Shown here piece by piece: positions 1,816 to 50,064 of a stretch of 64,000 nt of DNA. The translations under genes were made by a program, and so were the position numbers. The DNA lies in the NCBI GenBank assembly GCA_009691445.1, contig SICL01000003.1, positions 25,834 to 89,833 of the forward strand, written 5' to 3'. The first letter of the stretch is position 1, and every line of letters begins with the position of its first letter. Source of the stretch: Candidatus Taenariivivens baikalensis (GTDB taxonomy: Bacteria; Omnitrophota; Omnitrophia; Omnitrophales; Aquincolibacteriaceae). The notes under the pieces are model-generated. The model had not been told where the DNA came from and made no database searches. It saw only the letters and a program-made list of their open reading frames with translations.

Positions 1816-4800
1816 ATGCACCCATCATCTTTAACTCCTATGGATCTATCCTTGTTAAACAATGACATCCCGCCCTTGCTACAAATGATTTCGTCTTTTA
1901 GTGAAACAGAAATCAGCCGCTTGACGGGGGGAGTTAGCTTCAGAAAAGGCTGGGATTATTTGCAGACGAAGAGATTAGAGGATTTTTTTTGGGGAGAAGA
2001 ATCCATCAGCCTTTGCGCAAAAATCAGAGGGACAAATCTTTATCAAGTCACTCTAACCCAGAATCAAAAAAAAGATAAGATCAAAGGCCATTGTTCATGT
2101 CCTGCCTGGAATAACGGGACAAACTGCAAACACGTTGCCTGCGCTCTCCTAGGGATCCTGCAGTTGATCAAACCTAATTTCAATCAAGGAAATATCAATT
2201 TAGATTATCTTGAAAAAATGCGGGTAAAAATTATGAGTTTCCCAACTCCTGCAGCCACGACACAATCCGGATCTCCCCCGTTGGAATCTCAGACCAAAGG
2301 TCTTGCGATTTATCTTAAAAAAAATCAGGCAGGGGAACTCACCGCTGAATGCAAAAAAAATAATCGCCGCGTCAACGCACTCCGGTTGGAAAACACTCAT
2401 GATTTCAATTCTCCCTATCACCAGGAAGCTTCCAGCACCGAGGCCACTGAGCTAGCGCTTTTCGACTTCCTTCATCAGGCCCAGAAAGACCCTTTTGAAC
2501 TTTATGTTGAAACGGACCAGGGTGTCTTAAGAGCAACCTGGGATCCCCACCTACAAATCGAAACGGAGCTTTCGCTCCATCTGATCTCCGAACAAAATAT
2601 GGAAATCAGATGCGTTCCTTCAAAAGATTCCAAGCCTCTCCAGAATTTTTATCAACTCGGACGCTGCCTGTGTCTGGATTCTGAATCAGGAAACCTTCAT
2701 TTTGCCGAGGATTTGTCGGCCCTTAGCTATTTTTATGAACTTAAAATGAAAATCAAAAAGGATTCGTTTCCTGACAGCGATATCCTTGACCCAAAACCCC
2801 AGTTTCAACCCATTGAATCCATCAAACTTTTTACCTGGGAATGGAATGATCTTGGCATTATCCTGTCACCAAATCTCTTTAAAAAAACCACTTTTTACAC
2901 TCAGGACATCCGGCAGGCCCCTGAGAGTCAAGCCCCTGAATTTCGGTTGGAAATTGAGCAGGATGTCAGGTCTCAAAATTCATACACCGTGCAAACTGAG
3001 TGGCAAATTAATGGCAAGCCCCTCGTTGCGAAGTACCATCCGATACGCGATCTTGTGAAAATGGTCATCAATCACCCCGAACTTTCGTCCATGTATCAAA
3101 GTGATAGAAACCGTGTGTATCAAGCTTTCCTTGAATTTCTAAATCTGCCCAGCCCTGAAGAACAAACATTATTTCAGACGAATTTCTTGAATTCACTTTC
3201 ATTTCGATATTACGAAAGAAAAGAAGCTCGTACGCTTTTTAAAATTCTGAACGATTGGCGTGACCCAAACCTCAATCCCCGTCAGCCTCTCATCAAAGAG
3301 GGTGCTTGGCAGATTATTGAGTACGACATCTTACGCGCATTTCGTTTGCTTGGAACAACGGGATTTGTCCTCAATCATTTGCCAAGCCTTGCTCTTCTTG
3401 AAAAAGAGGAGCGCATTTCAGTTTCAGCAAAGAAAGTCCTTTCCATCCTTCTGGATCTTAAGAAATCCGTTGAAGATCTAGGCGGATCCCTTTACTGGAA
3501 GAAAAAAGAGATCCTCGTTTCAAGTCTGGAAGTTTCGATTGACGCCTCGGTAAGCAATCAAGATTGGTTTGAAATTAGACCTGAAATCAAATTGAATGGA
3601 GAGCCTCTGAACGAAAAAGATTGGCAAAATATTCTGGACTCCACCTTTCTTGAAAACCAATCAGGGATTCATATTCTGGATTCCAATGCCCTTGCAATTC
3701 TAACCCGTCTGAAAAAATCCCTCACTTCCAAACCCGGAACTTTAAACTCCCGGGAATTCATCCCGATTCCACGGCTCGAAATCTTTGATCTCTTTTCACT
3801 GCGCAAGCTTGGAGCCCGGGTGCGATTCTCTGAAAATGATGAACGCATCCTGACCAACCTGATGCATCTGGAATCCATTCCGCCAAGAGAAATTCCGGCT
3901 GCATTTCAGGGGGAACTTCGGGATTATCAAAAACGAGGTTACGACTGGCTTTGCTTCTTATATGAACACCGTTTCGGCGCCTGCCTGGCTGATGATATGG
4001 GCCTTGGCAAAACGGTACAGGCCTTGACCCTTCTTGCCGGCCTTAAAGAGCAAAAGCTGCGAAGTCCTTTTCCCAATTCCAAAACGCCTCATCTAATTGT
4101 GGTTCCGCCCAGCCTGGTCTTCAATTGGGAGAATGAAATTAGAAAATTTTATCCCGATCTTCGCGTCAAACTTTATACACAGCCGGCGGCGAACTTATCC
4201 TTTTCCGATTGCGATATTGTCCTTGGAACTTATGACCGGGTCCGTCTGGATATCGAAGTGCTTAAAAAAATAAGATTTCACGTCATTTTGTTTGATGAGG
4301 CGCAGTGGATTAAAAATATTTTTGCGGCACGGACAAGCGCGGTCCGCCAACTCAAGGGAAACTTCAAAATTTGTTTAACCGGAACCCCCCTTGAAAATCA
4401 CGTGGGGGAGTATTATTCTGTCATGGATCTTTGTCTTCCAGGTTTACTGGGAAACCCTAGAGAATTCCGGTCACTGGCCCAAGAGCAAAACAGAGCCCTC
4501 TTCCTGGACCGAACCCGGCCCTTTGTTCTGCGGCGCCTCAAACAGACCATCCTTAAAGAACTTCCCCCAAAAATTGAAACCGAAGTTTATCTTGATCTGA
4601 GCGAGGAACAAAAACAGCTTTATCACAAAATGGTCAACGAAGTGCGAAATGAAATTGCCAAAGCCTATTCCAAAAAAACGGAGTCACAGGCGAGAATTAT
4701 TGCCCTGACCGCTATTTTAAGGCTTCGCCAAATCTGCGTTTCCTCTCGTTTGTTAAATCCGGATTCTAAAGAACTCTCTCCGAAACTTGAATTCATGACC

Positions 4801-5295
4801 CACAAACTGCTGGAACTGCAGGACGAAGGCCACGCCTGCGTGGTTTTTTCACAATTCACGCGTTTTCTCAACCTCGCGGAAGAAGCACTCAAGAATGCTA
4901 AACTAGACTTCATAAGGATGGACGGAAAAACTCCCATTCCAAAACGGAAATTCCTTGTTGAGAATTTTCAAAATCCAGAAGGACCTCCCATTTTTCTGGT
5001 CAGCCTTAAAACCGGAGGCGTCGGACTCAATCTAACCCGGGCAAGTTATGTCCTTCATCTGGATCCCTGGTGGAATCCCGCCGTGGATCAGCAGGCCTCT
5101 GACAGGGTGCACCGGATTGGACAGACGCAGACCGTCTTCATTCACCGGATCTTGATGCGCCACACCATTGAAGAAAAAATGATGAGCCTTCGCCAAAGTA
5201 AACTCGAACTCTTCAAAAGCATTTTGGATGAACAGTCCAGCACGGGACCCGATCTAAAAATTACTAAAGCGGATTTTGACTTTCTCCTTACTTAA
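1816..5295 (+). CDS. SNF2-family helicase with N-terminal SWIM zinc finger
   Basis: SWIM-like CxC...CxH (CSCPAWNNGTNCKHVACALL); SNF2 ATPase motifs DDMGLGKT (Walker A), DEAQWIKN (DEAQ box), C-terminal helicase domain (LVSLKTGGVGLNLT, HRIGQTQ). Confidence 0.85.
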   Translation: MHPSSLTPMDLSLLNNDIPPLLQMISSFSETEISRLTGGVSFRKGWDYLQTKRLEDFFWGEESISLCAKIRGTNLYQVTLTQNQKKDKIKGHCSCPAWNNGTNCKHVACALLGILQLIKPNFNQGNINLDYLEKMRVKIMSFPTPAATTQSGSPPLESQTKGLAIYLKKNQAGELTAECKKNNRRVNALRLENTHDFNSPYHQEASSTEATELALFDFLHQAQKDPFELYVETDQGVLRATWDPHLQIETELSLHLISEQNMEIRCVPSKDSKPLQNFYQLGRCLCLDSESGNLHFAEDLSALSYFYELKMKIKKDSFPDSDILDPKPQFQPIESIKLFTWEWNDLGIILSPNLFKKTTFYTQDIRQAPESQAPEFRLEIEQDVRSQNSYTVQTEWQINGKPLVAKYHPIRDLVKMVINHPELSSMYQSDRNRVYQAFLEFLNLPSPEEQTLFQTNFLNSLSFRYYERKEARTLFKILNDWRDPNLNPRQPLIKEGAWQIIEYDILRAFRLLGTTGFVLNHLPSLALLEKEERISVSAKKVLSILLDLKKSVEDLGGSLYWKKKEILVSSLEVSIDASVSNQDWFEIRPEIKLNGEPLNEKDWQNILDSTFLENQSGIHILDSNALAILTRLKKSLTSKPGTLNSREFIPIPRLEIFDLFSLRKLGARVRFSENDERILTNLMHLESIPPREIPAAFQGELRDYQKRGYDWLCFLYEHRFGACLADDMGLGKTVQALTLLAGLKEQKLRSPFPNSKTPHLIVVPPSLVFNWENEIRKFYPDLRVKLYTQPAANLSFSDCDIVLGTYDRVRLDIEVLKKIRFHVILFDEAQWIKNIFAARTSAVRQLKGNFKICLTGTPLENHVGEYYSVMDLCLPGLLGNPREFRSLAQEQNRALFLDRTRPFVLRRLKQTILKELPPKIETEVYLDLSEEQKQLYHKMVNEVRNEIAKAYSKKTESQARIIALTAILRLRQICVSSRLLNPDSKELSPKLEFMTHKLLELQDEGHACVVFSQFTRFLNLAEEALKNAKLDFIRMDGKTPIPKRKFLVENFQNPEGPPIFLVSLKTGGVGLNLTRASYVLHLDPWWNPAVDQQASDRVHRIGQTQTVFIHRILMRHTIEEKMMSLRQSKLELFKSILDEQSSTGPDLKITKADFDFLLT

Positions 5296-5647
5296 TGCTT
5301 GTGGTATTATGACCGCTATGATCTTGAGCCGCTTGACAGATCCCAAACTTCTTCGACAGATTGTCCGTATCCTTTTAAAAAGAAAACCCGTTTCCAAAGT
5401 TGTCCTTTTTGGATCGCGTGCAAGAGGAGATGCGACAACGGTCTCAGATCTGGACATCGCTATTTTTGACCGCCGCTGGACGGACCGGGACGTCAATCTT
5501 GCCAAGCAAGATTTGGAAGAAATGCTCTCCACGCCACTCAAAATTGATCTTGTCGAATATTATGGAATCCAAAAGGAAAAACTTCGGAAGAATATTTTAA
5601 AAGAAGGGAAGGTTCTCTATGACAGCAGACCGGGCCAGCGATCTTAA
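5276..5647 (+). CDS. minimal nucleotidyltransferase (MNT-type, TA antitoxin-like)
   Basis: VVLFGSRARGDATTVSDLDIAIF is the GS-x9-DxD nucleotidyltransferase motif; true start probably an internal Met about 5310-5320; overlaps next ORF. Confidence 0.75.
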   Translation: MTFSLLNACGIMTAMILSRLTDPKLLRQIVRILLKRKPVSKVVLFGSRARGDATTVSDLDIAIFDRRWTDRDVNLAKQDLEEMLSTPLKIDLVEYYGIQKEKLRKNILKEGKVLYDSRPGQRS

Positions 5648-6014
5648 ACACGATTACCTTAAAGCCCTCAAACGTCTTCGTGAAGCTGTCGAAGAAGATC
5701 TTTCGAAGGGAAGCATTGTCATTGATGGGACAATCCAGCGTTTTGAATTTGTCTATGAACTGGGATGGAAACTTCTGAAAGCGGTACTGGATTTTCAGGG
5801 CGTCAATGCTCCCACTCCCCGTCAAGCGATTAAAGAAGCCTTTCAAGCCGGGCTGATTCCCAATGGCGAAGATTGGATTGATATGCTTGAAGATAGAAAC
5901 CGGACTTCTCATATTTACGACGAAAAGTCGGCCAAAAAAATTTACCAAAAAATCAAGCGTGTTCATTTGAAGACTCTTGAAGGATTACCCCTCCATTTAC
6001 CAAAGAATATCTGA
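5619..6014 (+). CDS. HEPN-domain protein (HI0074-like nucleotidyltransferase substrate-binding protein), partner of the upstream MNT
   Basis: size, position immediately downstream and overlapping an MNT gene, and R-x4-HxY-like motif (RNRTSHIYD). Confidence 0.7.
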   Translation: MTADRASDLKHDYLKALKRLREAVEEDLSKGSIVIDGTIQRFEFVYELGWKLLKAVLDFQGVNAPTPRQAIKEAFQAGLIPNGEDWIDMLEDRNRTSHIYDEKSAKKIYQKIKRVHLKTLEGLPLHLPKNI

Positions 6015-6180: not shown

Positions 6181-9100
6181 GTGACCTCCGTTCCGAAAAA
6201 AATGATGAAAAATCTTCCTAAAAAATCAGTCGCCCTGATCACGGGAATTGCCTTTGCCGTCACCAGCTTTGTCGCTCCCGCGTCTTATGCCGCACCCGTT
6301 CGCTTGACGGTACCGGGTACCGCCGCACCGAGTACTGCGCCGATGCCCAAAGAGTTTGGAGAAATTGTCTCGGAATATCACACCCAGGGAAATCAGACTT
6401 CTGTCTTTCTTATCCAGGATGCTCACGCAATACCAGAAGCACAAAAAAACATTCAAAAAATTATTCGTTTTCTGGCAGACAACTACGGCGTTCAAACCGT
6501 CGGCGTTGAAGGTGCTTCCAAAGAACTCGATACACAAATTTTTAAAAGTTTCCCGGATGCAAAGCGCTTGCAGGAAGTCTTTGATGATTATATGGAAAAA
6601 GGGGAACTCACGGGAGCGGCGGCGGCTGCGATTTTTAGGCAAGGAGCAGAGAGCAAGGAGCAAGGAGTCAAACCCCATGCCCCAAGCACCATGCTCCATG
6701 CTAAGTTTTATGGCTTAGAAGACCAACCCCTCTACGAAGAAGGCCTGAAGCTTTATCAGGAAGCGGCAGGGAAAGAGGCCGACCTCAAGACGAAGTTGGA
6801 AGTTAGAAGTAAGAAGTTAGAAGAAGAGAAGACGAAAGCGTATTCCAAAGCATTACTTGCGATTGATGAAGTCTTGGGTGCTTTCAATGAAAATCACGCA
6901 AATCTGACGGATGTCCTCTTTCTTCTCTCCAAAATCCGCAAACCGGAAAAGGGAAGTGAACTCCGGGCCATTCTGGATGAAATGAAACTTGAGAAGTCGG
7001 ACCGGACTTCGAGTGTGATCCAGGTGAGACGGCTTGCAAAAGAAGTGGAATGCGAAATGACGCAAAGTGCAAAGCGCATAGCGCATAGTGAAAAAAATTC
7101 AGAAAAACGCTTTGCCCTTAGCGCTATGCTCTATGCCGACTTCCACGCTAAACTCCAGCAATTCAACACTTCCCAGCTCACGCCTCAAGCATTTGCGTTT
7201 TATCTCAAAGAAGTGATCACGGAAAACAAGTTACCCCTGAAAGTATCCGATCATCTGCTCGGATTAGTCCGCCATCAAAAAACAGTTCAGGAAATTCAGG
7301 GAACAAAGCTGTTCAAAGATCTTGAAACCTACGCAGCGGCCATCAAAGAATCCCTTTTTGAAAATGCCGGACAGCGGGACCTCGATCGCAAGACGCATCA
7401 GCTTCAGCTGCTCACCAAACTCACAAAGCTTGAGCTCGCGAGGGAAGAGTGGGAAGAAGTAAAAAGGTTAGAAGTCGGAGGTTGGAAGTTGGAAGGAAAA
7501 TCGTCTTCACTTCAAACTCCTCATCTGTCTTTCTACCGCAACGCCGAAGCCCGGGAACGAGCCTTCCTGACGAAGTTAGACGTTAGAAGTTCGAAGTTAG
7601 AAGAGAAAAACCGCAGAGGCTCGTTACTTCCATCCTCCAACTTCAAACTTCAAACTTCTATCGTGGTCGCTGGCGGCTTCCACACCCAGGGCCTGGCCCA
7701 CAATCTCAAAGCCCGTGGAATTTCCTATCAAGTCATTATGCCGCGTATCCAGTCGCTTCCTGAACAGTCTTCTTACCGGGAGCAGATGAAAGGGAATGTT
7801 TCGTGGTCTTCTTATATGAAAGCAAAAGATGGACGGGTTAATTTGTATGAAGCTTTTACACGCGCTACGCGCGATAAACTCTTGAAGTTAGACGTTAGAA
7901 GTTTGAAGTTAGAAGAAAAAGAAGGAAATCAACCTGTCCAACTTCCGACCTCTAACTTGCAACTTCTTAAGCCTTGGCGAGACCAAATCCTAATCGACCT
8001 CGCTCAAACCGAACAGCTCGACAAGGCCGGAGAGTACACGCGGTTCATTGACGAAATCAGCAGAGAGCATAGTGCAGACCTGCCCGCCGAAGCGAAGCGG
8101 CAGGCGGGGAGCAGAGGGTCTGACTCTATGCCCTATGCCCTTAGCTCTATGCATCAGAAGTGGCAAGCCGCCGTTAAAAAATTTACCGATGGAATAATCC
8201 GCCTTGAATCCCAGGGCCGGTACACGCCGGATAATATCGTTCGCCTTCTTCAGCCTGCGACGATTCTTCCTGAAACGGGATTGGGACAATTTAATCCCGG
8301 ACAAACCTTTCCAGTATTTAGAGAAGGTCCGATGAGCGCGGAAGGGTTAACGGGTAAGCCGGTGCGCGGGTTCACGGGTACGAGCGCTCGCATACCCGCA
8401 TACACGCGTACCCGCACACGACAACCTCGCTCCGAAGCAAGAAATAATCTGCAATTAGGAGGGCCAAATGGAACGATTCGGTGGGTAGACATGAAATGGG
8501 GAAGCCAGCAGCTTCAACTTTCAGAAGCCATTCAATCTATGAATGATCCTGACATAAGCATAGCTCAAACCATAAAGGCCATAAAAGATTTTTATCTTGC
8601 GATTCAAGAAAGCGGAGAGGACGGGATGTATGATAGCATCGACAAACAGGATATCCTGACTGGGAACCTGCCTAACTTTTTACGCGCCTTGGGGATGCCC
8701 AAAAGCGACTCCGGAGAATCATTAACAGAAGCAGAAGCTCAATTTTCTTTTAATTATTTAAAAGAGCGATTCCATGATTTAGAATCTTTGAACGTTTCGT
8801 TTACAGGTTTGAATAATCCCTCTCTCAAGATCGAAATCTACTGGTGGATTTTTGTGCTTCTGTTAGTGGCTGATCACAACACGGCATCAGCGTCATCCGC
8901 CGACATTCAGGCTCTTTCAGAGACTGAAGAACTTTTGGCTCTGCTGATCTGTGCTATTTCCAGCGATCATGTGAGAGGACAAATTTCACAAAATCCCAAG
9001 GATTTGATTGAATCAAGATTGCTGGACTTGACCCGTACACAGCCTTTGCTTGGAAAATCCATTTCGAAAATCATGCGGCATTGGGATCCTTGGATTTCTG

Positions 9101-12100
9101 AAGGACAACGGATATGGATGGAGGCGGTGCATGCGGTCGGAGATGCCCAAGATGGGCAAGACTTTGAGCTGAAACCGGATCGTGCTGTTTCCGAGGCCTC
9201 GAAAGCCAAAAGATTATTTGATAAACTCACCGAATTAACCAATGTGTTAAAACCCAGTAACTCGGAAGAACTACGCCATTGGAATGAGCCTCTTACCACA
9301 GCCGTTGAAATAGCCTCTCAAGCGGAGACCGTTTTATTTGACGGTGCTCGTGCGGCTTTTTTGGGGGCAAAACAACCCGGATCTGATTTCTCCTGGGGAA
9401 CGGATTTTCAATTTTCGTGGCTGGAAGAAATGGCCCGGAAGGGTTGGAAACAAATCGCGTTTGTTGTAGATGATACCTACACCAAGGATTTGATCACTTT
9501 TTTTCCTTCTGAAGATCAAATCTCCGGCGATCAAATGGTTCTGAGTTTGGAAAAATACCTACATCTTCCTCAAGAAGCAACTCTGCGTGATTATTTACAT
9601 CTGCCCAAGGAGCATGAAAATCCAAGAGTGACTCGCGCGATTCAGTTTTGGCAAAGAATGAGAAGCCTTGTTCAGAAGCAAAACCTAAAAATTCATTTGA
9701 TTGTTTATCAACCTTTTGAAACGCACGAGCAAAACGAATGGCTTGAAAAAACTCCGGGTAAAAAGATTTTGTGGGATTCTTTGTTGGTTATGAGGCCTTA
9801 CAAAACAACCGGCATGGTTTCTATTGCGCAGTTTCTGACAAGAAATCAATACGAACAAGAAACCTTCAATCCGCCACTCGCCGTATCTTATGCGGCGCAT
9901 CAAGCCGCGATGGATCAGGGATGGGGGGAGTATCACTCAGTCGGATTCAAATTATCTAAACGCTTGGAAAATTTTATGCTTGCACAGCCTTTGATAAAAA
10001 CACCTCGTTCCATTTCTCTTGCGCGCCTGGACAGTGTGGATTTTTCAATTTATACAGGATCGGATGACGGAAAATTAGACGAGATGGAAATAGGTCTTCC
10101 CGAAGCTCCGGAAAAAGTCCCTGGTCCGAATGTTTTAGAACCCACCACCCGCTCCGAAGTGCGGGGCGGAGAAGGTGATTGGAGAACACGAGGTACGCCC
10201 ATCCAAGATTTTTCACGGCAAAAAATGGAAAAAAATGCTTATGAAGAGCTGGATGTTCCACGGAATGCAAGTGAGGATGAAATCAAAAGGGCATTTCGAA
10301 AACTAGCCGTTATCCATCACCCGGATAAAAATCCAAGTGACCGCCAAGGAGCGGAAGTGAAATTTAAGCGTTTAGGGGTTGCCTATGAACTTTTAATGGA
10401 CCCAGACCAGCGACGAGTCTATGATCAATTGCTTGATTCCAACTCGGCTCCGCGACCAAGCTCTTCCACGTTTACTGGTTACAAAGACCGGGCAGAAGTG
10501 CCTAACCGTGTCATGAGCTACGACGATATTGACAGGCACATCGACGAGATTCCCAAAGCACACCGGCCCAGCATCGGCTTTAACCTCGAAAGAGATCCAC
10601 AAGGGGGAGCCGTTTTGAACATTATCACAGAATACACGAAACAGTTGTGGAAGCAGGAAACGAACATTTTAGATTTTACTGCGCATAAAAATGAAGTTTT
10701 TATACTCCATCCTCGCTCCGCAAAGATAGCGGATAAACACGAGATTCATTGGTTTAATGGCTTTGGCTATTATCTTGTTTTATCCGAAGACGATCTCATT
10801 AAGTCATTTCCTGTCGTAGCTAAACGATTTGGATTTAAAAAGGAAATTAAAAACGATCCGCGCTTCATGACGCGGGTGGATATCTTCAATCAACTAAACA
10901 TGGATGAAAGTTGGAGTAAGCGAGGCAATTCCAAGCCTACGCTTCCAGGGATTAAAGCGTTAGTGGTTGGAAACCCGGGGAAAGATTTTTTGTGGATCTA
11001 TACGGAAATTTCGGCTGACCCTGTGGGAATCAATAACATTGTTGGCTTTTCACGTGAGCAGCACAACTTTTTTGTTCTTCATCACGATACGCCGGAAAGT
11101 CCTGAACCTATGATCTCAAGGTTTGATTCCGAAGGCCGGTTTGAACCCACTGTTTCCAGCGAGACGGTCTGGCCTGATTTTCCGGAGACAGCTTTGGAGT
11201 TCAAATTACCTCCGGTCAAAATAAAAATGAACGCCGAAGGACCGGCGATGAGAAGGGGGGAAATCATACTCCGGAATCAGGATTTATTGCAAGCTGCTAC
11301 GGCGGCCAGAATGAAGCTTGGGCCTCATCTCCCTCTAAATCCCGGGGATTTGGAAGTTGACACCAGGGAGAGAGAGCAGTGGTTCAGACGTAAACTTACC
11401 GGCGTTACGGCTTATACCATTTTTCAGAACCATTTTTTTGGGGTCAAACGCCGCGAGGGAGAGGATATCACAATTGCGCGGATTTCTGGCGATAACCCCG
11501 GAGCCGCTCAGCTCCTTAGCCGGAAAGAGCTCCTCGATCAATATCCGATTGTTGCGGCAGAATTCTCCCTCCGCTCCGAGGTGAGGGAAAAAGAGGTAGC
11601 GGGTTTGCGGGTAACTCGGTTAACGGGGGAACAGCCCGCCCCCGCCACTCAATCTTTGGCGGACAAGCGCACACAGGCTCACTCGCTCACCGGCACACCC
11701 GATTCCTCCCGTTCCGAAGTGAGGGGAGTCAGTAGCCGATCATTCTTGAAGACATTGGCCGTAGCTGCAAGCGCAATAGCTTTCCACCCACTCACCGCTT
11801 CAAGTCAGATGAATCCAGAAAATCAAACCATCAGCAAAATGCGCGATCTTTTTATTCCGGGCCGAGGAATTGATCGGACCACAGGGTATCCGCTTGATGT
11901 TGTGATCGGATCTGAAGGATGGAAAACAACTCAGCCCACGAGCATTGGTTTCCGGGCCGAAGAGCTGGCCTTATCCGCATCGAATAGGCTTCCCGTAAAA
12001 ACCGGCGGCGCCGCAACCGCGCAAGCCGAGGATCTTCAAACTCTCACAGAATTATTAACCCGGCTCCAAGGGGATCAAAAGTCGTCGCTTGCCTGGAAAG

Positions 12101-15100
12101 GTTTAATTCCCTGGTTCAAACTCACGAGCGAAGGGGCTGCCGCTGACCGAGATGAAATTGCCTACGTCGATAATGCCAATCTGTCAGGCAGTTTAATGGT
12201 CGTGATTGGGGCTTTACTTGAGGCAAAAAGAGCAAAGCCCCAACCATCCAAGGCCTTCGATGCCGCCATTGAAAAGGCCCAACAGATTCTGGATGCACAA
12301 AAAAAAGGTTACGAAGCGCTCTTTAATCCGGCGCGTGGACTTTTCCGCGGCGGGATTAAAAAATCATCCGGAGACTGGATTCATCCTAATTATTATATCG
12401 ATCGATTATTTTCTGAACATGCCGGAAAAACCGCAGCCATTATCAGTTACTTTGGTTTCGATGAAGCCGGATATACCAACCTCGGCCCCGCATTTCGAAC
12501 CCATACTTTCCGCGATCAGTCCACGGGCGACATTGCAGCGACCTGGGACGGTGGCGTTTTTCAATTTATTTGGAACTTTCCTTTTGTTGGCGATTCCAAA
12601 CTTTGGAAAACCTTGGCAGAAAATCATTTAAAAGCAATTACGGATGAGGCTCATCAAAAAAATCTTGGCGGAGTATTGTCCGCTTCCTGGGATGGCGCTT
12701 CTTATAATGCCGGAATTGGTCATGCTTTCCGTGAAAATAGCAATCCCGTCATCAAAAATAATGTCGCCTCGCTTTACAGTCTGGATGGATATACCTCAAT
12801 CTCTGCAAAAACAGTCGCCGCTTGGCGCTCGGGAATCGTAACCCAAGTTCCAGAGTTGATGGGACCCTACGGAAATTTTGATTCAATGACCGAGGGTGTT
12901 GTGAATTCGGGCGTCTATGTTGCGGTCGATCATTTATCTTCCATTTTAGGATCGGCGGCAGAAGCAAGGGCCAGTGCTTTTCGAACGCTGATGAAACAAA
13001 AAGCGAACCGTTACGAAGGCTTTCTTCAATTAATTGAAAAACCTCTGCTTCACGCTCAAACCAGTCATCCCAACGCTTTTCAAAAACTTAACATTGATTA
13101 CGCGCCCGTTCCTCAGGTTAAAAAAAATAAGCGCAGCGTGAGCGATGTACAGATCGTGGATAAGGGAAAAGTGATTAAGGCGGATGAAAAGAATTCTAAA
13201 ATTTCTTACGCGGACATTCCGAATGGTTTTGGATTCACGTATGAAGCAGACGCAGGTGATTTTGCGGGAACCTTTGCCAGCTTGAATATGCAAAAACCCG
13301 CAGGAAAAAAGCTGTCGTGGAAATGGGAAAAAATTAAGAATTATCCGCTCTCACCCGTCGTGACAGTGAAACTTGAGTGGGGCGGCACGACAAAGTTTCA
13401 GCAAACATTGCAGGTAGATCTCTCAAACCCTCGCGCTGAAATTGAGCTACCTTCGGACACGCCATCCGGTTTTACCTTTGTTCTTGTCATTGATGCCTGG
13501 GATACCGCCAAGGGATTTCATAAAAGAAGACAGGCTCTCGGCGCCGCCAACTTTTCTCTCCGCTCCGAGGTGAGGGAAGACGAAGAGGCTATGGAGTTAC
13601 CAGACTCAGCAGGTTCGACGAAATCAATGGGTGAACTCAAGCATCCGAATATTCTGGCGACGTCTCGCGCACCTGACGCTCGTGCTGAGCTAAGAACCCA
13701 TGCACCCAAAGATCTTAAAATAGGGAAGCTTGATTTATCACTGTCGAGGAAATTTTTATCAAACGACTCCACTCTTGAGAGTTTTGCCAACGAGTTACTC
13801 AAGGCAAGCGTCCTGGCTCCCGACGACCAAAGAGTCCATGGAATAACAAGCACCTCACTGAGAGAATATGATCATTTAATCTCACTTGGTTTTTCTACGA
13901 ATACTTCAAAAGAGACCGCCGTTAAAAACGCCACGGACAATCAAAGATCGAAGATTCAGAGAGCTCTAACGCTCGCTAATATTTGGGATATTGCCTATGA
14001 TTCTAAGGCGCAACGCATCACGCTTACCTTGGATGGAGGGGAACTCCTTCTGTTTAATGCGCCTGGTGATAAAGAACTCGCGTTGCTATCTGCAAAATTC
14101 CGTCACCTGCTATCCAACTCTCAACCTTTAACCGCGAATACAGCGAAAAGGGCGGCTCTTTCTTCAGGACTTAATAGTTTTCTGACTTATCTTGATCACG
14201 GAACTATTTCACCCCTAGACGAACCCAGTGAGGTCACGGCTGATTTTTTTATTCCTAATCAAGCCGCAAAGCAAGCGATTCTTCATCATATGTCTCAAAC
14301 TTTTGGATCAGATATCGTGACCACGGGCAGGGAAGCCTTGGATCGTTGGCTCATGGATGAGGAATCCTATCAGCAGTCTTTAGCCCTTGCCGATGCAGCC
14401 CATACCAAGGCCCTGGCTGAGCAGACAATCTTGGATAAGCAAGCGGCCGTAGCTCGAGCCGCAGAGGAATTCCGCCAGGCTCAAGAAACGGAGGCCAAAA
14501 AACGGTTGCAAAAAATCCATCAAACAAGAATCAGACGAATCAAAATATCCGCCGCCATCGCGGGTGTCCTTGCGGCCTTCGTTGGGATTGTTCTTGCGGT
14601 GAATGCTTTCACCGCCCGCTACCAAAAAGCAAAAAACGAAACAAGACTAACTCATGCCGAAGATTCAAAGCAAAAAGAATTCAGAAAGCGAACCATGGCG
14701 ACTTTAGTCGCTGATTTCAGAAATAATTTTCCTCACCCGGAAAATTATGGGAGTTTTATTCAGCATCTCGCAGGTAAAAACAAGCTTAATCAAGCTTGGG
14801 ATCTTCCCGAGATTAATTCCTATGCTTTGATTAAGGATGTTTATGATTCCTTATCACGCATCGAGTACGAACCAAAAAGGAACAGCCTCACACCCGCACG
14901 ACGAGCAGTAGATCCTATATTTCTCGCTTTGATGGAACTGGAGACTCAACTGCCAACGGAAAAAGCGGGCGGTATTTCCAAGGTGATAGCGAACGCACGT
15001 CTTATCGAGAGCGAACAAAAAAATACTTTACTCCAGCATTTAGTAATTAATTCTCTAAATCTGGTCAACCAGTGGCACCAATTCCCAGAGACAGAACGCA

Positions 15101-18100
15101 TTAAAAAACTCAAGGACCTTCTCGTGGGTTATGAAGAATATGTCGCCGTGAAACTAAGTCCTGAGAGCGCCATGATTGCATTGAAACAATTAATTCCTCC
15201 TCACCTTTTCGGAAATACTCGTAAAATAATGGGCGCAAAGTTAATCGGTGCGATCATCCAGGAGACTCAGACTTGGGAACTTCTTACTCCATCCTTGAAT
15301 ACTGCGCTGATGTTCAATGCTGAGTTAATGATCGATTTTATGAAGGTGTCGCCCCCCAAACTCGATTCATGGACGCAACCGAATAAGAATCTGGACAAGA
15401 AAAAAGCAATAACGCTAGCGGATGCTCAATCGATGCTGGAATTGACCATAGAGGAACGACAAACAAATAGAACAACAGCCACTTTTATTATGAAAGAAGA
15501 TGGGATTTCCTTTACTGACATGATCGAAGCCGGATATAAAATTCTCGCCCAGGAAGATCCTCGAATTTCAAGAGACATAGTCTTCATTTCTCTCAATGGG
15601 AAAGTGTTTGCTAATGTTGCAGAATGCTTCGCCGTCCGAATGAAGGCAGGCGACAGGGCTCTCCTTACTTATCTCCGCTCAGAGGTGAGGACAAAGAAAA
15701 TTGTGGGACAGGATATTTCAACCCGGGTTAATCCATTACGTTCTGCAACAGTTCCCGCTGAACGGTTTCAACCCGCGTCAAAGTCCCACCAGGAACTTCG
15801 AAGACATGATCCGATTGCAAAGAGGTTAACGCCCCTAAAAAAACCGCAGGCGAAGGCGGGGCCCAATCTACCCCCAAATAATCGCTCCAAAGCGAGTATG
15901 AAACAGACGCCCGGAGAGCTGATCCAGCTCGCGAATGACTGGCTTGGGATGCATCTGTTAGTTTCCGAGCATGGAGTGACGTCCACGATTCACGTGGTTC
16001 TGGACTCGACGATCCAAAGGTCGACCGCGAGTCGAAAAGAGTATGATAATTCTATAGGGAACAACGTTGATTTTAATATTACTATCCGGGTGCCGACAGC
16101 CCAAATCACATCCGTGACAAAGCTTATAGCCCAGATTGATGGTGCCTTGAAAAGCAAGGGATTAGACGTCAGCACTCCCTCTCCCCACATTCCGGCAGAA
16201 GGAGAGATTTCCTGGTCTAGGAATCTGAAATCGGATATGAAATTTGACTTTGGACAAAATGCTTCTGATGAGGCGATTGGGGAAATGACGCAAAAGATTA
16301 ACAGGATTTTGAGGCGGCATCCCTTTGCCGGCTATAAGAATCTCTTTGCCGAACAGACACGCCATGAATTCTACGATAGTCATTTTGATGTGGAGATCTT
16401 GCCGGCCGGTGAACCTACTGTCGATCAGCCGAGAGGAGGGTATGTTGTGTATTCCTGGTGGAGTGGTATGCTCATTCAGGTGCGCGGGAACTTACTCACG
16501 GGTCCCAAGTGGAAGAAGAAGCTCGTGGAGGAAGTTATCAAACAATTTAGAAACTATGTGACCCGCTATAAAATGCGATTTTATGCACCAGCTTTAAAAA
16601 GAATTATACTCAAAGATCCGCCCTATCAAGGGCACTACTGGGGGGATCCTGACAGCGAACAGTGGAAGAGCTATCTAAGCAGTACGCAGGCACACGTAAA
16701 ACAAATTGAAGCCAAACTTAGAACGTTATTAAAGCCCCCCCCCGCAGTCAAGCGAGCTGAAGTGAGGACTCAAAACGATCTGGATCAGATGACCAATTAT
16801 CAAGATGTTGATATTTCGCAGATAGGCACGCACATCCGTGCGGAGCTGCGAAGTATCAATCTAAGCAATGCAGCAATGTCAACCCTCCGCCGAATGTTGA
16901 GTTTGACGGAAGCGGAACTGAACCCTCAAGGTTTGACAACGAGTAAGGTCTCAGCTATATATGTTTCTCCGGATGAGCGTGTTGCTATTGTGTTGCCGGG
17001 TATGTTGACGAGGGTGGAAGGTCAGACAGACCCACAACTTGTAAAAATCTTTCATTTAGTAGGCGCGGAAGAGGTCCAAAGTCATGGTGTACCGAGTAAT
17101 ATAAAGGATGTGTTGTTTCAAAATGGTGGCTTTACAGTCAGTTATTGGGATCCAACAAAAACGCCTGAAACCTTCCAAATTCTGGATCAAAAGCCGTGGG
17201 TTCAAAAAGTTGAAGACCGCTCCGAGGTGAGAAGTAAGAAGGCGACCGAGAGCACATTATCCGGAGGCCATACGAAAGTAGTTAAGCCACGCTTTGCGGC
17301 ATCGGCGAAAAAAAATGCTTCGGATTTTAATCTCCCCCCCGCTCAAAGGGAGCGCAATAAGAACTTGAAGAATGATTCGCCCCAGGACCGATCTGAGATT
17401 CGGAGAATTATTTCGGATGAGGTATTACGCGTGGTTTGGGCAGGAATGACAGGAGAGCCTGCAGAAAATGTTTCTTCCAAATCAGTTGGCCCTTTGACCA
17501 AAGTTTCCGCAAACGAGGCCGCTGAAATGATCATTGCGTTGAGTGAAACCTACTTCCAAAATCACGCGGCTGAAGTAACGGCATTCAGACAAACCGATCA
17601 AGTTTTAGCGGGCAGTGCTCAAAGGATTGCGGCGAAGATTGCGAGCCTCAAACAAACGGTTGTGATTCGCCAGACGCTTACAAATGAACAGCTGAAAGCA
17701 AGCGGTGATCCGCAGGCAGCCGTCCGTCAATGGATGAAAGCTGCCGGAAATTTAGCGGCATCCACCGATAAACTTTTGATTCACGTGACGCTTCCTGCCA
17801 ATTTCAGATTTAAAAATCTGGACTATAACCGGCTTGCCGGCTGGAAGGTCGTACCGACAGGGGACGGGGGATACGCGGTGGTTAATTCCACAGTGGATAC
17901 AAACGCCATTAACTTTAACAGCCTTATTCCCACACTAGTGATTTCTGATGAAGCGCTTGATCAAACCCAGGAAACACTCATTTCCGGCACCGACGCGCAT
18001 GGAAATAATCTGACACTGAAACCTGCTGATTTTGCCAATATTCTGACGGCGGGTGCCGGTTTTATTGCGGATAAACTTTCTTTGCGAAGCTGGATTGTTT

Positions 18101-18213
18101 CCAAAGGTTCGATTTCTTTCTTTGAAGATCAAAATGCCCTGGCTCATGCTGTTGATGCTGCACGTCTGATTCAAAGAGCTTTGGCTTCCAGAAGAACTGC
18201 GTACTCGGCGTAA
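6181..18213 (+). CDS. giant (4010 aa) secreted/membrane-associated multidomain protein with TraB/GumN/TIKI-like N-terminal region, embedded DnaJ J-domain and one internal TM helix
   Basis: uninterrupted 12 kb ORF; N-terminal signal-like peptide ([26 protein letters not shown]); [14 protein letters not shown]...VQTVGVEGA and later [19 protein letters not shown] resemble the GTxH...AGHL signature of the TraB/PrgY/GumN family; J-domain with HPD motif ([31 protein letters not shown]) at nt about 10234-10440; hydrophobic helix [22 protein letters not shown] at nt about 14540-14610; GTG start at 6181 (alternative ATG 6202). Confidence 0.75.
6640..6703. repeat. Family-B palindromic insert (agcaaggag.../...ctccatgct) in-frame inside the 4010-aa gene
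   Basis: agcaaggagcaaggag ... ccatgctccatgct is an imperfect inverted repeat; related copies at 7071-7137, 8061-8152 and 30586-30660. Confidence 0.6.
6790..6828. repeat. Family-C repeat (gaagttagaag iterations) in-frame in the giant gene
   Basis: gaagttggaagttagaagtaagaagttagaagaag; related to copies at 7466-7520, 7572-7659, 7884-7968. Confidence 0.6.
7071..7137. repeat. Family-B palindromic insert in-frame (gcgcatagcgcatag ... cttagcgctatgctctatgc)
   Basis: clear inverted repeat flanking about 30 nt; encodes ...FALSAMLYA... Confidence 0.65.
7466..7520. repeat. Family-C palindromic insert in-frame (ggttagaagtcggaggttggaagttggaag ... cttcacttcaaactcc)
   Basis: inverted repeat of the gaagtt/aacttc motif. 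Confidence 0.55.
7572..7659. repeat. Family-C palindromic insert in-frame (gaagttagacgttagaagttcgaagttagaag ... ccaacttcaaacttcaaacttc)
   Basis: long imperfect inverted repeat; arms encode [11 protein letters not shown] and NFKLQTS. Confidence 0.7.
7884..7968. repeat. Family-C palindromic insert in-frame (gaagttagacgttagaagtttgaagttagaag ... ccaacttccgacctctaacttgcaacttc)
   Basis: near-identical left arm to the copy at 7572; right arm inverted. Confidence 0.7.
8061..8152. repeat. Family-B palindromic insert in-frame (cagagagcatagtgcagacc ... ggtctgactctatgccctatgcccttagctctatgc)
   Basis: inverted repeat gcagacc/ggtctgac and gagcatag/ctctatgc; encodes ...MPYALSSMH... (compare MPSALSSML in the nuclease gene at 30586-30660). 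Confidence 0.7.
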
Positions 18214-18273: not shown

Positions 18274-18498
18274 ATGAAAAAAAAATTGATTACAAGTTCT
18301 AAAGATGTACTGGGAGGCACTCCCGTTTTTGCCAAAACCAGGGTTCCGGTCAGAGCCCTGTTTGACTATCTAGGAGCAGGCAGGTCTTTGGATGAGTTTC
18401 TTGATGATTTTCCCTCCGTAAAACGCAGCCAGGCTGTAGGCGTTCTGGGACAATTCAAAACCGTTGTCTTGGGTCCTTTTTATGAACGTGCTGCTTGA
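18274..18498 (+). CDS. DUF433-domain protein (antitoxin-like)
   Basis: VLGGTPVFAKTRVPVRALFDYLGAGRSLDEFLDDFPSV matches the DUF433 consensus (GG.P.i.GTRi.v..il..l..G.s.eeil.dyP.l). Confidence 0.75.
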   Translation: MKKKLITSSKDVLGGTPVFAKTRVPVRALFDYLGAGRSLDEFLDDFPSVKRSQAVGVLGQFKTVVLGPFYERAA

Positions 18499-18802
18499 CG
18501 AATGCCTGCCTCGCAAGCTGAAATTCGAGATCAAGGGACATTTTGTTTCCACGGTTACCCAAGAAGGCTGGACTGGGAAAAAAAATGGAGAACTGCTAAG
18601 ACTGGCGGAGAAAAAATTTGCCGTATTTGTCACCGTGGATCAAAACTTAAGTTATCAACAGAACATTAGCAAGTTCAAAATTTCTGTCATTCTTCTGACT
18701 GCAAAAGACAATGATCTTGAAACGTTAAAGCCGTTCATGCCGAAAGTTCATCAAGCACTTGACAAACTGGAAGCTGGAAGGATTTTCAGGATTCCGCCTT
18801 AA
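18482..18802 (+). CDS. DUF5615-domain protein (PIN-like putative toxin paired with DUF433)
   Basis: MNVLLDECLPRKL start typical of DUF5615 (LLDENLP); overlaps the DUF433 gene; the track ORF starts 18464, but the ATG at 18482 is more likely. Confidence 0.65.
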   Translation: MNVLLDECLPRKLKFEIKGHFVSTVTQEGWTGKKNGELLRLAEKKFAVFVTVDQNLSYQQNISKFKISVILLTAKDNDLETLKPFMPKVHQALDKLEAGRIFRIPP

Positions 18803-18806
18803 AAAA

Positions 18807-18845
18807 GGGGACAGGTTTTAAAACCTGTCCCCTTTTGATTTTGTT
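18807..18845. terminator. bidirectional rho-independent terminator between convergent genes
   Basis: ggggacaggtttt aaaacctgtcccc perfect 13-bp stem flanked by A-run on one side and ttttgatttt on the other. Confidence 0.75.
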
Positions 18846-18853: not shown

Positions 18854-19810
18854 TTATGTGGTCGTTTCCTGAGTAGCGCTGGTCCCACTGTTTGAAGAAT
18901 CAGAATTCATAGTCCCGCCGCCTTGCTGCCCTTGCTGCTGATAATTTCCTTGCGGTGGCGGACGACGAGGACGCTTTTTCTTTTTATGAGGAGGCGGCAT
19001 CGTCCCGCCCTGGTCCTCACTTATCTCACTGCTGCTTTCAGAATCTGAACTTTCTGATTCTGAAATCGCTTCACTCGATTCCGTGGAGCTCCCAGACGAT
19101 GCGCTTTCCGTCATGCCTTCCTGCGACCCTTCCTGCATTCCTTCTTGAGAAGGAGGCATCATTCCCGATCCGTCGCCGCCTTGCATTCCTCCACCATTCA
19201 TTCCGCCACCGGGTCCCATTCCCATTTGCCCTTGGCCACCGCCATTTTGACCACCGTTCATTCCACCATTAGGCCCCCCCTGCATTCCGCCAGGACCACC
19301 GCCGTTCATACCTCCGCCTCCAGGACCACCACCGTTCATGCCTCCACCTGGGCCACCCATCCCGCGACCTCCGGGACCACCACCGTTCATACCTCCGCCA
19401 GGTCCACCCATTCCGCCACCGCCGCCAGGACCACCACCGTTCATACCTCCGCCTGGGCCGCCCATTCCGCCACCGCCACCAGGACCACCACCGTTCATGC
19501 CTCCGCCTGGGCCGCCCATTCCGCCACCGCCACCAGGACCACCACCGTTCATGCCGCCGCCTGGGCCGCCCATTCCGCCACCGCCTCCAGGACCACCGCC
19601 GTTCATGCCTCCGCCAGGTCCGCCCATCCCGCCACCGCCGCCGCCGCCTTGCATACCTGGACCACCGCCTCCGGGGCCGCCACCACCGCGCCGTTCACCG
19701 CCGCCGCCGCCGCCACCACCGGGCCCACCGCCGCCAGGTCGGGCTTCAAGCGAGGTGACAAAAACAAGATTGGAAATAATTGCGAGCGCAATCAGGGAAG
19801 GACGCTTCAA
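18854..19810 (-). CDS. secreted glycine-rich low-complexity protein with tandem 19-aa repeats (GGMGGPGGGMNGGGPGGGG) and acidic Ser/Glu tail
   Basis: signal peptide MKRPSLIALAIISNLVFVTSLEA; >=6 near-identical 57-nt tandem units; chosen over the plus-strand Pro-rich shadow ORFs because of the signal peptide and convergent terminator. Confidence 0.55.
   Translation of the reverse strand: MKRPSLIALAIISNLVFVTSLEARPGGGGPGGGGGGGGERRGGGGPGGGGPGMQGGGGGGGMGGPGGGMNGGGPGGGGGMGGPGGGMNGGGPGGGGGMGGPGGGMNGGGPGGGGGMGGPGGGMNGGGPGGGGGMGGPGGGMNGGGPGGRGMGGPGGGMNGGGPGGGGMNGGGPGGMQGGPNGGMNGGQNGGGQGQMGMGPGGGMNGGGMQGGDGSGMMPPSQEGMQEGSQEGMTESASSGSSTESSEAISESESSDSESSSEISEDQGGTMPPPHKKKKRPRRPPPQGNYQQQGQQGGGTMNSDSSNSGTSATQETTT
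19290..19640. repeat. 57-nt tandem repeat array (coding, inside the Gly-rich protein)
   Basis: ccgccaccgccaccaggaccaccaccgttcatgcctccgcctgggccgcccattccg repeated head-to-tail. Confidence 0.8.
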
Positions 19811-20224: not shown

Positions 20225-20602
20225 ATGCATTCCTTCAAATTCAATGATCAAGGCCTTTTACCCGTCATTATTCAGGACTCTGAAAACGGAGAAGTCCTCA
20301 TGCTCGCCTATATGGATAAAATCGCCATTGAGCGGACCCTTTCCGAGAAAAAGAGCGTCTTCTATTCCCGTTCGCGCAACAAATACTGGGTCAAGGGGGA
20401 GAGCTCAGGCCACGTGCAAGCCGTTCTTCTGGCTCTAACAGACTGCGACAGCGATACCATTCTGATTAAGGTCACGCAAAAGGGAGGCGCCTGCCATCTT
20501 GGTTACCGGAGCTGTTTTGTTCATGAACTGGACAGCAAGGGCGATATTTCCCGCGTGACTCAGGAGAAATTTTTTGATCCGGATACCGTCTATAAAAAAT
20601 GA
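20225..20602 (+). CDS. hisI: phosphoribosyl-AMP cyclohydrolase HisI
   Basis: LLPVIIQD...GEVLMLAYM...YSRSR...WVKGESSGH...DCD.D..L..V.Q.GGACH.G..SCF conserved HisI motifs. Confidence 0.9.
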   Translation: MHSFKFNDQGLLPVIIQDSENGEVLMLAYMDKIAIERTLSEKKSVFYSRSRNKYWVKGESSGHVQAVLLALTDCDSDTILIKVTQKGGACHLGYRSCFVHELDSKGDISRVTQEKFFDPDTVYKK

Positions 20603-23887: not shown

Positions 23888-24033
23888 TAACCAAGATACA
23901 AGGTACAAGAAACAAATAATTTCCAATTTTAAAAATAAAATTTCAAATGACCGTTTTTAAAATTAAAAATTGGAATTTTAATCATTTTTTGTATCTTGTT
24001 TCTTGTATCTTGAAATTTAAATAGGGCAATTTT

Positions 24034-26850: not shown

Positions 26851-26905
26851 GATCCAAGAAACAATGGATCTTGTTTCTTGTATCTTGGTTATTCATTTGA
26901 GGTAA

Positions 26906-29421: not shown

Positions 29422-29518
29422 GTTGAATTCCCGGGACACTTAACTTAATTATTTTTTGGAATTCTGAATTTTGTGATGTGTCCTCAGAAAGAGAATTGGA
29501 ATAACCAGAGAGGGAGAA

Positions 29519-30736: not shown

Positions 30737-30737
30737 T

Positions 30738-31325: not shown

Positions 31326-31454
31326 AAAAAAAGAAGAACCCGCGGAGGAGTTTCACTTTCCGCAAGTTCTTCGCCCGTTGAAATGATACCAAAAAAGAGG
31401 ACTGAATCAACCGTTTTGTTCATTTCCCGGTACATTTTTTTGACGCTAGCAAAT

Positions 31455-40928: not shown

Positions 40929-40974
40929 TGCAGTAGAGAAGGCAGTCGGCAGGAGGCAGGAGCGGTAAACCCCA

Positions 40975-45041: not shown

Positions 45042-45049
45042 GGTTTTGG

Positions 45050-50063: not shown

Positions 50064-50064
50064 G

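Follow-up and report, generated by a model that had tools for sequence, protein, structure and literature searches.

A giant Omnitrophota protein with a TIKI-like head, an embedded J domain and modules separated by R-[S/A]-E-x-R: a candidate effector polyprotein

The Omnitrophota, an uncultured, widespread and probably host-dependent phylum, are characterised by giant genes, and a 64,000-nucleotide stretch of DNA from Candidatus Taenariivivens baikalensis (assembly GCA_009691445.1, contig SICL01000003.1, positions 25,834 to 89,833; hereafter the window) raises the question of what the product of such a gene does and whether, and where, it is cut. The open reading frame (ORF) concerned occupies 6181..18213 on the forward strand and runs for 4010 codons from a GTG; the ORF listing and the translation show no internal stop, in line with the single uninterrupted 12-kb frame described in the initial annotation. 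From the annotated start, ATG 6202, it encodes the 4003-aa GenBank protein MSR76934.1 (exact look-up; locus tags EXS63_), named 'J domain-containing protein', and HisF, TrpE, TrpD, TrpC and DnaK of the window belong to the same GenBank record. Judged by its sequence, the protein begins with a conserved head that leads a large family of giant modular proteins with predicted export, known to date from Omnitrophota alone, and continues in variable modules that are separated by the pentapeptide R-[S/A]-E-x-R (RSExR below). We propose, with a probability of roughly 45%, that it is an exported, cysteine-poor effector polyprotein of the MARTX kind, processed at RSExR and possibly by its own head.

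The head domain and the family it leads

The N-terminal part contains the following features, with residues in ORF numbering here and throughout.

6202..6294 (+): Sec-type signal peptide, with basic n-region MMKNLPKK, a 17-residue h-region, then PASYA/AP; Kyte-Doolittle 1.84
6343..8280 (+): conserved head domain, aa ~55-700, an alpha/beta core with a large helical insertion, then the WRDQI/YTRFIDE extension
6412..6429 (+): IQDAHA motif, with D80 and H82 as candidate catalytic acid and His; invariant in the 31-sequence alignment, 139 of 150 strict matches
6499..6519 (+): VGVEGAS motif, with E110 as candidate catalytic Glu, 28 residues past H82
7666..7692 (+): VAGGFHTQG motif, with H501 as second candidate catalytic His

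The Sec-type N-terminus agrees with the signal peptide claimed earlier, and hydrophobic N-termini line up across the homologues in the head alignment. A phmmer search with aa 1-1200 against 1.84e9 cluster representatives returned 6067 relatives of the head, which spans ~650 aa (residues ~40-700), at E<=1e-3 and 546 at E<=1e-30. The best 150 matches cover query residues ~10-700, start within the first ~100 residues in nearly all cases and lie in proteins of ~500 to 7984 aa. All matches with a named organism come from Omnitrophota, and a pattern scan of GTDB species genomes (one genome per species) found at least 562 relatives, often several per metagenome-assembled genome (MAG) and also in tandem; among the best 80 loci from these genomes, which do not include the window's own MAG, the closest match is 39% identical. 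The three best matches overall are paralogues from the window's own MAG, and paralogue heads are 45-58% identical. The head domain can serve as a handle that defines thousands of Omnitrophota giants.

Two subfamilies can be distinguished. Members of the close one are >28% identical over ~660 residues, the WRDQI...YTRFIDE extension included; those of the distant one are ~25% identical and have heads of ~490 residues, and among them are stand-alone proteins of ~510 aa. One of the latter, the 531-aa protein P0183 (locus L003 1-9596; GCA_043797125.1, JAZDPX010000045.1), lies 105 nt downstream of a 13,995-aa gene whose last 2632 residues are without RSExR; the association between head and giant thus holds even where the two are unfused. 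A second locus (L002 223-26267; ENA ERZ27247320 k141_38992) carries tandem family genes of 6014 aa and 5937 aa, 4 nt apart, each with its own signal peptide and head, the first with 16 RSExR motifs.

In the searches run, the head matched nothing in Pfam, NCBIfam or PDB sequences, and a head profile against PDB sequences was also blank. Its likely nature emerged from the 31-sequence alignment and a structural model. Sixteen positions are invariant in all 31 sequences: Q79, D80, H82, Q88, E110, G111, G178, F451, Y452, R458, G498, G499, F500, H501, P521 and Y532. The motifs at aa 75-83 (VFLIQDAHA) and aa 495-504 are the most conserved of the whole family, and the distance from His to Glu is 28 residues in 138 of the 139 members tested. 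The catalytic set of the TIKI superfamily consists of two His and two Glu residues, namely E3900, H3902, E3930 and H4030 in RRSP, with His85-Glu113 in Bcr135 (PMC6254334), and the spacing in the head equals that of H3902/E3930 and H85/E113 in the two proteins. AlphaFold2 modelling from the alignment gave a confident model (predicted local distance difference test, pLDDT, 83.6; predicted template modelling score, pTM, 0.77) with an alpha/beta core whose strands lie at model residues 23-43, 69-72, 138-141, 455-461 and 478-484 and which is split by a long helical insertion; the alpha/beta fold with a parallel beta-sheet core, characteristic of the TIKI superfamily, is present in the model. The structural comparison returned the relatives below, with its two values in brackets, and the superfamily as listed in the RRSP structure paper covers them (PMC6254334).

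2rad_A: Bcr135-type erythromycin-esterase homologue (8.1; 161)
6xcq_A: EreC (7.8; 176)
8bqs_DQ: TraB-family protein (7.7; 172)
2g5g_X: ChaN (7.6; 153)
2qgm_A: 'succinoglycan biosynthesis protein' (7.6; 165)
5w6l_A: RRSP (7.3; 136)
5t09_A: HopBA1 (7.3; 152)

Like the members of the superfamily (TIKI1/2, RRSP, EreA-D/Bcr135, ChaN, TraB/PrgY/GumN, HopBA1), the head has an acid-x-His after strand 1, a Glu 28 residues further on and a C-terminal His after the last core strand. It differs from them in that the core is split by a helical insertion of ~300 residues, the motifs read QDAH, VEGA and GGFHT instead of GTxH/GExTHG, and the domain nearly always stands at the N terminus behind a signal peptide, usually fused to thousands of residues. 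Model and alignment together indicate that the head shares both its fold and its His/Glu active-site residues with the TIKI/erythromycin-esterase/ChaN/TraB/RRSP hydrolase superfamily, of which it is a divergent new family, and it is probably an active hydrolase. The TraB/PrgY/GumN (TIKI-like) N-terminus of the initial annotation therefore holds as to both motifs and the superfamily fold; membership of the TraB/GumN family in the Pfam sense is ruled out, as no such profile matches.

A frame of this length could also be an artefact, either several genes wrongly joined in assembly or a degenerating pseudogene that happens to read through, and the circumstances leave some room for this: the MAG was assembled from short reads, it contains paralogues, and the exact protein is on record from one contig only. 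We consider it extremely improbable, because 4010 stop-free codons would arise by chance with a probability of ~1e-68 (stop-trinucleotide frequency of the window, 0.038), the paralogue heads at 45-58% protein identity are too distant to co-assemble, the repeats are only ~30 nt long, and the architecture of head, RSExR-separated modules and embedded J domain recurs in hundreds of independent assemblies. The same recurrence is the outcome of the comparison with giant genes in related genomes that had been suggested at the outset.

The RSExR motif and the modules it separates

Copies of the motif in the ORF are listed in order.

8428..8442 (+): RSEAR aa 750, first motif, at the end of the head region
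10150..10164 (+): RSEVR aa 1324, 24 residues ahead of the J domain
11572..11586 (+): RSEVR aa 1798
11710..11724 (+): RSEVR aa 1844
13561..13575 (+): RSEVR aa 2461
13681..13695 (+): RAELR aa 2501
15676..15690 (+): RSEVR aa 3166
16753..16767 (+): RAEVR aa 3525
16837..16851 (+): RAELR aa 3553
17218..17232 (+): RSEVR aa 3680
17389..17403 (+): RSEIR aa 3737

Six-frame translation of the 64-kb window gave ten matches to R[SA]E[VLIM]R, each of them within this ORF and in its frame, and with RSEAR at aa 750 the total of R-[S/A]-E-x-R is 11. Across the family the motif is enriched more than 100-fold: in 150 members RSELR was observed 199 times against 1.3 expected, RSEVR 181 against 0.7, RSEAR 132 against 1.1 and RSEMR 74 against 0.23. 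R1, E3 and R5 do not vary, S (80%) or A occupies position 2, and L, V, A, M, T, S or I occurs at position 4, while the flanks are diverse, with S/A/P/G enriched only ~2-fold. Not one of 907 motifs falls within the first 560 residues; the first stands at a median of aa 674, the end of the head, and the spacing between motifs peaks at 150-400 residues, the size of a domain. Recognisable domains can end at the motif, as do the J domains of two relatives, P0093 and P0097, which run directly into RSEAR; the HPr domain of P0014, a paralogue from the same MAG, is followed by SELRSEIRSELRS. In 79 related loci the motif occurred only in large ORFs, i.e. those with close-subfamily heads, adjoining same-strand ORFs running off the end of the locus and ORFs continuing a family gene, and ordinary neighbouring genes in these loci had none.

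The constraint acts on the peptide, since the codons are free to vary: in the tandem genes of locus L002, Arg is written with four different codons at position 1 and with five at position 5, and Ser with five. Reading RSEVR as a translated Shine-Dalgarno sequence (GAGGTGA) that marks fused genes was ruled out, because RSELR and RSEAR are equally common and the codons vary. It is highly unlikely that the motif is a joint at the DNA level, either a relic of the heptamer arrays described below or a recombination site for the shuffling of cassettes, with no role in the protein. Such a joint would account for the rather uniform motif DNA within the giant gene (five copies use CGC TCC GAG GTG AGG, and two share 41 nt at 80% identity), for the RSEVRSKK at 17218, which reads like GAGGTGA GAAGTAA heptamers, and for tails that are hypervariable between paralogues; it would fit, too, with a fourth residue that is more uniform within a protein than between proteins (0.41 against an expected 0.21), from which we conclude that each lineage has its preference. 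It does not accommodate the highly varied motif codons of L002, the variable fourth position between invariant R, E and R, or the lack of any copy in another frame or on the opposite strand of the window.

Features of the tail other than the motifs are as follows.

10234..10425 (+): J domain PF00226, aa 1352-1415; Pfam E=6.6e-22, 77.8 bits against a cut-off of 27.8, 63 of 63 profile positions
11731..11805 (+): internal signal-peptide-like or Tat-like segment, aa 1851-1875, directly after RSEVR aa 1844; Kyte-Doolittle 1.35, weakly hydrophobic, read from sequence
11806..13560 (+): module M5, aa ~1876-2460; one relative, 27% identical over 365 residues, in an RHS-repeat protein of another Omnitrophota MAG
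14545..14601 (+): transmembrane (TM) helix, aa 2789-2807; Kyte-Doolittle 2.63, basic residues on both flanks

Past aa ~700, some 3300 residues have no match to the 149 other top family members, even paralogues 57-58% identical, J domains excepted. Tiles of the tail, the J domain aside, matched nothing in Pfam, NCBIfam (eight tiles) or PDB sequences, and a search of JGI metagenomes gave no orthologue with the same tail; this agrees with the ~3000 residues of the initial annotation, most of which were said to match nothing recognisable. These comparisons characterise the tail as a set of member-specific, hypervariable modules, delimited by RSExR. The cargo of other members comprises HPr with a phosphoenolpyruvate (PEP)-utiliser fragment, a cNMP-binding domain with a metallo-beta-lactamase fold, and a Ser/Thr kinase, and many have no Pfam domain. 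P0014 (MSR78099.1) is a 3415-aa partial giant with the same head, HPr at aa 1890-1969 and the PEP-utiliser fragment, and is annotated as 'HPr family phosphocarrier protein'; automatic names of these giants evidently follow whichever small domain is recognisable. The relative of M5 is the C-terminal part of a 2061-aa RHS-repeat protein (L079 376-17035), encoded 3 kb upstream of a distant-subfamily head protein with a Ser/Thr protein kinase domain. A homologue search with aa 1848-2460 found none, which is weak evidence, as the same search listed no head match >1142 aa despite the existence of larger members, and a single-sequence AlphaFold2 model of M5 was unusable (pLDDT 37.7); judged by eye from its sequence, M5 may resemble an (alpha/alpha)6 glycosidase.

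DnaJ is the sole significant Pfam domain in the whole protein, which otherwise gave two weak TM-region matches at E<=1. The canonical J domain noted earlier at ~1350 aa stands confirmed by the full-length Pfam match and by J domains in the PDB, which match it in sequence down to E=1e-16; its helix II is basic, HPD lies at aa 1380-1382 (nt 10318-10326) within HHPDKN at aa 1379-1384, and a Met stands 3 residues ahead of its start. No DnaJ_C or DnaJ_CXXCXGXG Pfam match follows it, so that the parts found after the J domain in class A/B DnaJ are missing, and NCBIfam DnaJ equivalog models match over their first ~75 positions only, far below cut-off. In this respect it resembles class C (type III) J proteins such as DjlA and the polyomavirus T antigens, which likewise have an isolated J domain with HPD and no G/F region, zinc finger or DnaJ C-terminal domain; it differs in lying ~1350 residues deep in a cysteine-poor protein with a signal peptide. 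The domain presumably serves, as in J proteins generally, to bring an Hsp70 to a specific site or client. Such an arrangement had been held to be very unusual, but at least three other family members carry an embedded J domain (P0093, P0097 and L026), and NCBI has already named two such giants J- or DnaJ-domain proteins; the embedded domain alone is thus less unusual than assumed. The protein has 3 Cys in 4003 aa (0.07%, against 0.88% in other genes of the window and a family median of 0.06%), and the TM helix at aa 2789-2807, placed by Kyte-Doolittle hydropathy where one had been expected (~aa 2790), is its only strong internal hydrophobic segment, weaker ones lying at aa ~882-897 and aa 1851-1875.

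These features also allow for an inner-membrane protein whose J domain is cytoplasmic and recruits the cell's own DnaK, as in DjlA, to aid folding, holding or translocation of the giant or its neighbours, with the weak segments at aa ~882-897 and 1851-1875 serving as extra membrane passes. A canonical J domain with basic helix II and HPD, a dnaK gene in the genome, a signal-anchor-like segment after the RSEVR at aa 1844 and the greater basicity of the N-side flank of the TM helix are all consistent with it. We nevertheless regard this as unlikely: only two segments reach TM-like hydrophobicity on the Kyte-Doolittle scale, the depletion of Cys spans the whole protein including the J module, and the J domains of P0093 and P0097 lie deep in giants without an obvious matching topology.

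Proposed processing and delivery, and competing readings

As an effector polyprotein, the giant would be threaded out of the cytoplasm unfolded, which would explain the near absence of Cys. Cuts at RSExR would then divide it into fragments about the size of a domain, and its own TIKI-like head may be the enzyme that makes them. The endopeptidases TIKI and RRSP each cleave at specific sites, and a sharply defined basic/acidic pentapeptide at domain borders, right after a head with such relatives, seems best explained as a processing site. Once released, the fragments would serve as effectors, on or in the cells of a host or prey, and the J domain would engage the Hsp70/DnaK of the target there. 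Omnitrophota are regarded in published work as predatory or parasitic, and the recurrence of cytoplasm-type cargo in their cysteine-poor exported proteins points to an action of the released modules inside another cell.

Among known systems, the MARTX toxins of Vibrio and relatives come closest, being likewise of 3.5-5 thousand residues and combining a conserved part with strain-variable, unrelated effector domains. Their short inter-domain sites are processed by their own protease; of such module release, the variable modules and the sharp inter-module motif are seen in the giant, whereas its cleavage and delivery are predicted. Pfam and the neighbouring genes reveal none of the RTX/glycine-rich repeats, the cysteine protease domain (CPD, C80) or the type I secretion signal and genes of MARTX; the giant has an N-terminal Sec signal instead, and its candidate protease is the N-terminal head rather than an internal CPD. 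Gingipain/HagA of Porphyromonas gingivalis provides a precedent for an exported polyprotein whose domain borders are cleaved after Arg by a protease domain from within its own protein family, although its caspase-like cysteine protease fold, its type IX secretion and its domains are all unrelated to the giant. Polymorphic toxins (Rhs/CdiA) pair a conserved N-terminal part with a toxin at the C terminus that is variable but short, and the immunity gene lies next to them, whereas the variable part here is multi-modular and ~3300 aa long and is followed by a DUF433/PIN-like toxin–antitoxin pair, with no immunity gene conserved in the family; M5 does have its relative inside an RHS-repeat protein.

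Several observations weigh against the proposal. Cleavage at RSExR is itself a predicted step, and delivery into another cell finds no counterpart in the related loci, where no gene, including any secretion system or transporter, is conserved next to the family genes. A J domain needs an ATP-driven Hsp70, which is absent outside the cytoplasm, and the TM helix is more basic on its N side than on its C side, as would be expected if the J-containing part lay in the cytoplasm. The distant head subfamily has no RSExR at all, though it also heads large proteins, and no analogous punctuation motif was found in it, so that the head must have some role independent of RSExR. D80 is replaced by Asn in two motif-rich members. 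The fold does not imply a protease, as the superfamily also includes esterases (Ere) and the haem-binding ChaN; no TraB/GumN (PF01963), ChaN or erythromycin esterase profile matches the head, and the suggested Foldseek check of the otherwise confident model against the PDB gave nothing significant, the best relevant hit, 3b55 at E 0.76, being a weak pointer. We hold doubtful the strongest form of the proposal, in which the TIKI-like head is a sequence-specific self-processing endopeptidase that frees a strain-specific effector cocktail, and the J domain in this cocktail commandeers the Hsp70 of a host, bacterial or archaeal.

Some of the same observations could be due to an uncleaved scaffold of the surface or envelope, anchored by the TM helix at aa 2789-2807, in which RSExR is a linker signature or a partner-binding motif and the head an esterase or peptidase acting on an envelope component of host or prey. 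This would accord with the signal peptide and TM architecture, with the linker-like, S/A/P/G-rich flanks of the motif, with large proteins that carry the distant head and lack RSExR, and with the published view of Omnitrophota giants as membrane-associated surface proteins. A linker, however, needs no invariant R..E.R pentapeptide with sharp borders and free flanks, and it is not obvious what cargo of the cytoplasmic type (J domain, HPr, kinase, cNMP-binding) would do at the surface; we therefore judge a scaffold to be somewhat unlikely and prefer the processed effector polyprotein.

Parts of this picture are not new. Giant genes of Omnitrophota, their signal-peptide and TM topology, embedded 'metabolic' domains and suspected proteolytic processing have already been published, and one of these studies states that the cleavage points are unknown. 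The Archaeovorins, Dockerin-type and 'multi-enzyme' giants share with the present protein the phylum, a signal peptide and TM helix, few annotated domains, poor conservation and cytoplasm-type enzyme domains within exported proteins. They differ from it in having at least 10-30 thousand residues (>30 thousand in West-Roberts 2023) with dockerin, C39, S8 or SecA, whereas it has 4 thousand and, by Pfam, none of these. Term searches of three published giant studies found no J domain, those of two preprints among them nothing relevant on motifs or cleavage, and those of a 2026 preprint nothing on an N-terminal head or linker; a full-text literature search for RSExR variants found nothing relevant. 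RSExR predicts exact neo-termini and so turns the question whether the giants are cleaved, and where, into a testable prediction. The strongest form of the proposal, if true, would represent a new, Omnitrophota-wide effector-polyprotein system, analogous to MARTX and independently evolved, and would supply the missing cleavage code for the giant proteins of the phylum.

A conceivable trans-acting protease for the giant lies in the window itself, although there is no link between the two. The 2539-aa ORF MSR76951.1 at 32902-40521 (-) combines Thr-rich linkers with a subtilase domain of type S8 (aa 1292-1635) and has a Cys content of 0.12% and no RSExR motif.

Hairpin elements in the head and surroundings of the gene

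The repeats in the gene had been described as at least 14 in-frame repeat insertions. Five true insertions remain; the count had pooled two unrelated things, DNA hairpins and the RSExR peptide. Tandem Repeats Finder (TRF) reported 12 arrays in the ORF, of 7-nt units (one 8-nt) and all within 6639-8416, which form inverted pairs with the reverse complement 5-50 nt away, able to fold into long imperfect hairpins.

6637..6705 (+): element 1, aa 153-175, (GCAAGGA)n with inverted partner; fold z -4.2; among homologues only the same-MAG paralogue P0013 has it
7063..7137 (+): element 2, aa 295-319, inverted pair of CGCAAAG/GCGCATAG arrays
7573..7659 (+): element 3, aa 465-493, (GAAGTTA)4.6 with reverse complement, just before the GGFH strand; unique to the giant gene
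7885..7965 (+): element 4, aa 569-595, (GAAGTTA)4.6 with reverse complement; shared with P0013
8071..8151 (+): element 5, aa 631-657, GCAGAGAGCATAG... / (CTATGCC)n

In the 31-sequence alignment all five elements are insertions without a counterpart in most homologues, P0013 carrying the inserts at 153-175, 569-595 and 631-657, and all five coincide with pLDDT dips in the head model. One heptamer-like stretch, at aa 205-217, is no insertion and lines up with a conserved helix. The hairpin folds in the ORF have z values of -0.5 to -4.2. Their intergenic counterpart between trpD and trpC (23880-24020) is a near-perfect hairpin of ~130 nt, (CAAGATA)n with (TTGTATC)n, at -34.5 kcal/mol and z -5.7, and other intergenic heptamer arrays lie at 626-651, 26868-26887 and 40940-40962.

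The elements behave like Rickettsia palindromic elements (RPE), reportedly selfish hairpin DNA in frame within protein-coding genes (Ogata et al., Science 2000), and are here tolerated in frame in surface loops. Like RPE they are ~70-100 nt long, form hairpins in frame inside an ORF, are absent at orthologous positions, are sited in low-confidence loops and have intergenic elements of the same kind; unlike RPE they consist of heptamer arrays with their reverse complement, the unit varies (GAAGTTA, GCAAGGA, CTATGCC, CAAGATA), and only one gene in the window carries them. This extends the tolerance of RPE-like selfish hairpin DNA in a coding region beyond Rickettsia. The arrays as slippage tracts for phase variation were judged unlikely, given the few copies (3-4.6) and imperfect units (75-88% matches, one 2.9-copy array excepted).

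The surroundings of the giant gene comprise the following features.

656-1411: hisF
1816-5295: SNF2/SWIM helicase
5276-6014 (+): MNT (nucleotidyltransferase)/HEPN-like toxin–antitoxin pair, upstream of the giant ORF, island context
18274-18802 (+): DUF433/DUF5615 (PIN-like) toxin–antitoxin pair, downstream of the giant ORF
18803-18836: bidirectional terminator with a perfect 17-bp stem, after the DUF433/PIN-like pair
20225-20602: hisI, followed by trpEGDC
43107-45041: dnaK, with neither grpE nor dnaJ adjoining

The giant gene sits in an accessory island between hisF and hisI with toxin–antitoxin pairs on both flanks; this gene order agrees with the accessory status claimed initially, as does the absence of grpE and dnaJ next to dnaK with its description as an orphan. 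The whole window contains no Rfam RNA family and no tRNA (ARAGORN).

Convergent with the downstream toxin–antitoxin pair at the terminator is a 318-aa ORF (18854-19810, -) in a patch of 53-60% G+C, against ~46% elsewhere in the window. It has a signal-like N-terminus, ~200 residues of GGGPGGG(M/N) repeats, encoded by 33-nt CCG-rich repeats, and a Ser/Glu-rich tail, and has no Pfam match. Another accessory cluster (28361-32235), flanked by two-component/sigma-54 genes and the S8 giant ORF, consists of an HTH_3 regulator, a DUF1016/SNase-like protein and two ORF6N/Rha-like (phage antirepressor-type) genes (-). Around dnaK (43107-52137), a DUF188 (YaiI) gene lies upstream and a 357-aa ORF without a Pfam match downstream, followed by a MoxR-type AAA+ ATPase (46266-47255), three ORFs and a 690-aa ORF (50065-52137) that contains tandem-repeat DNA at 51600-51970.

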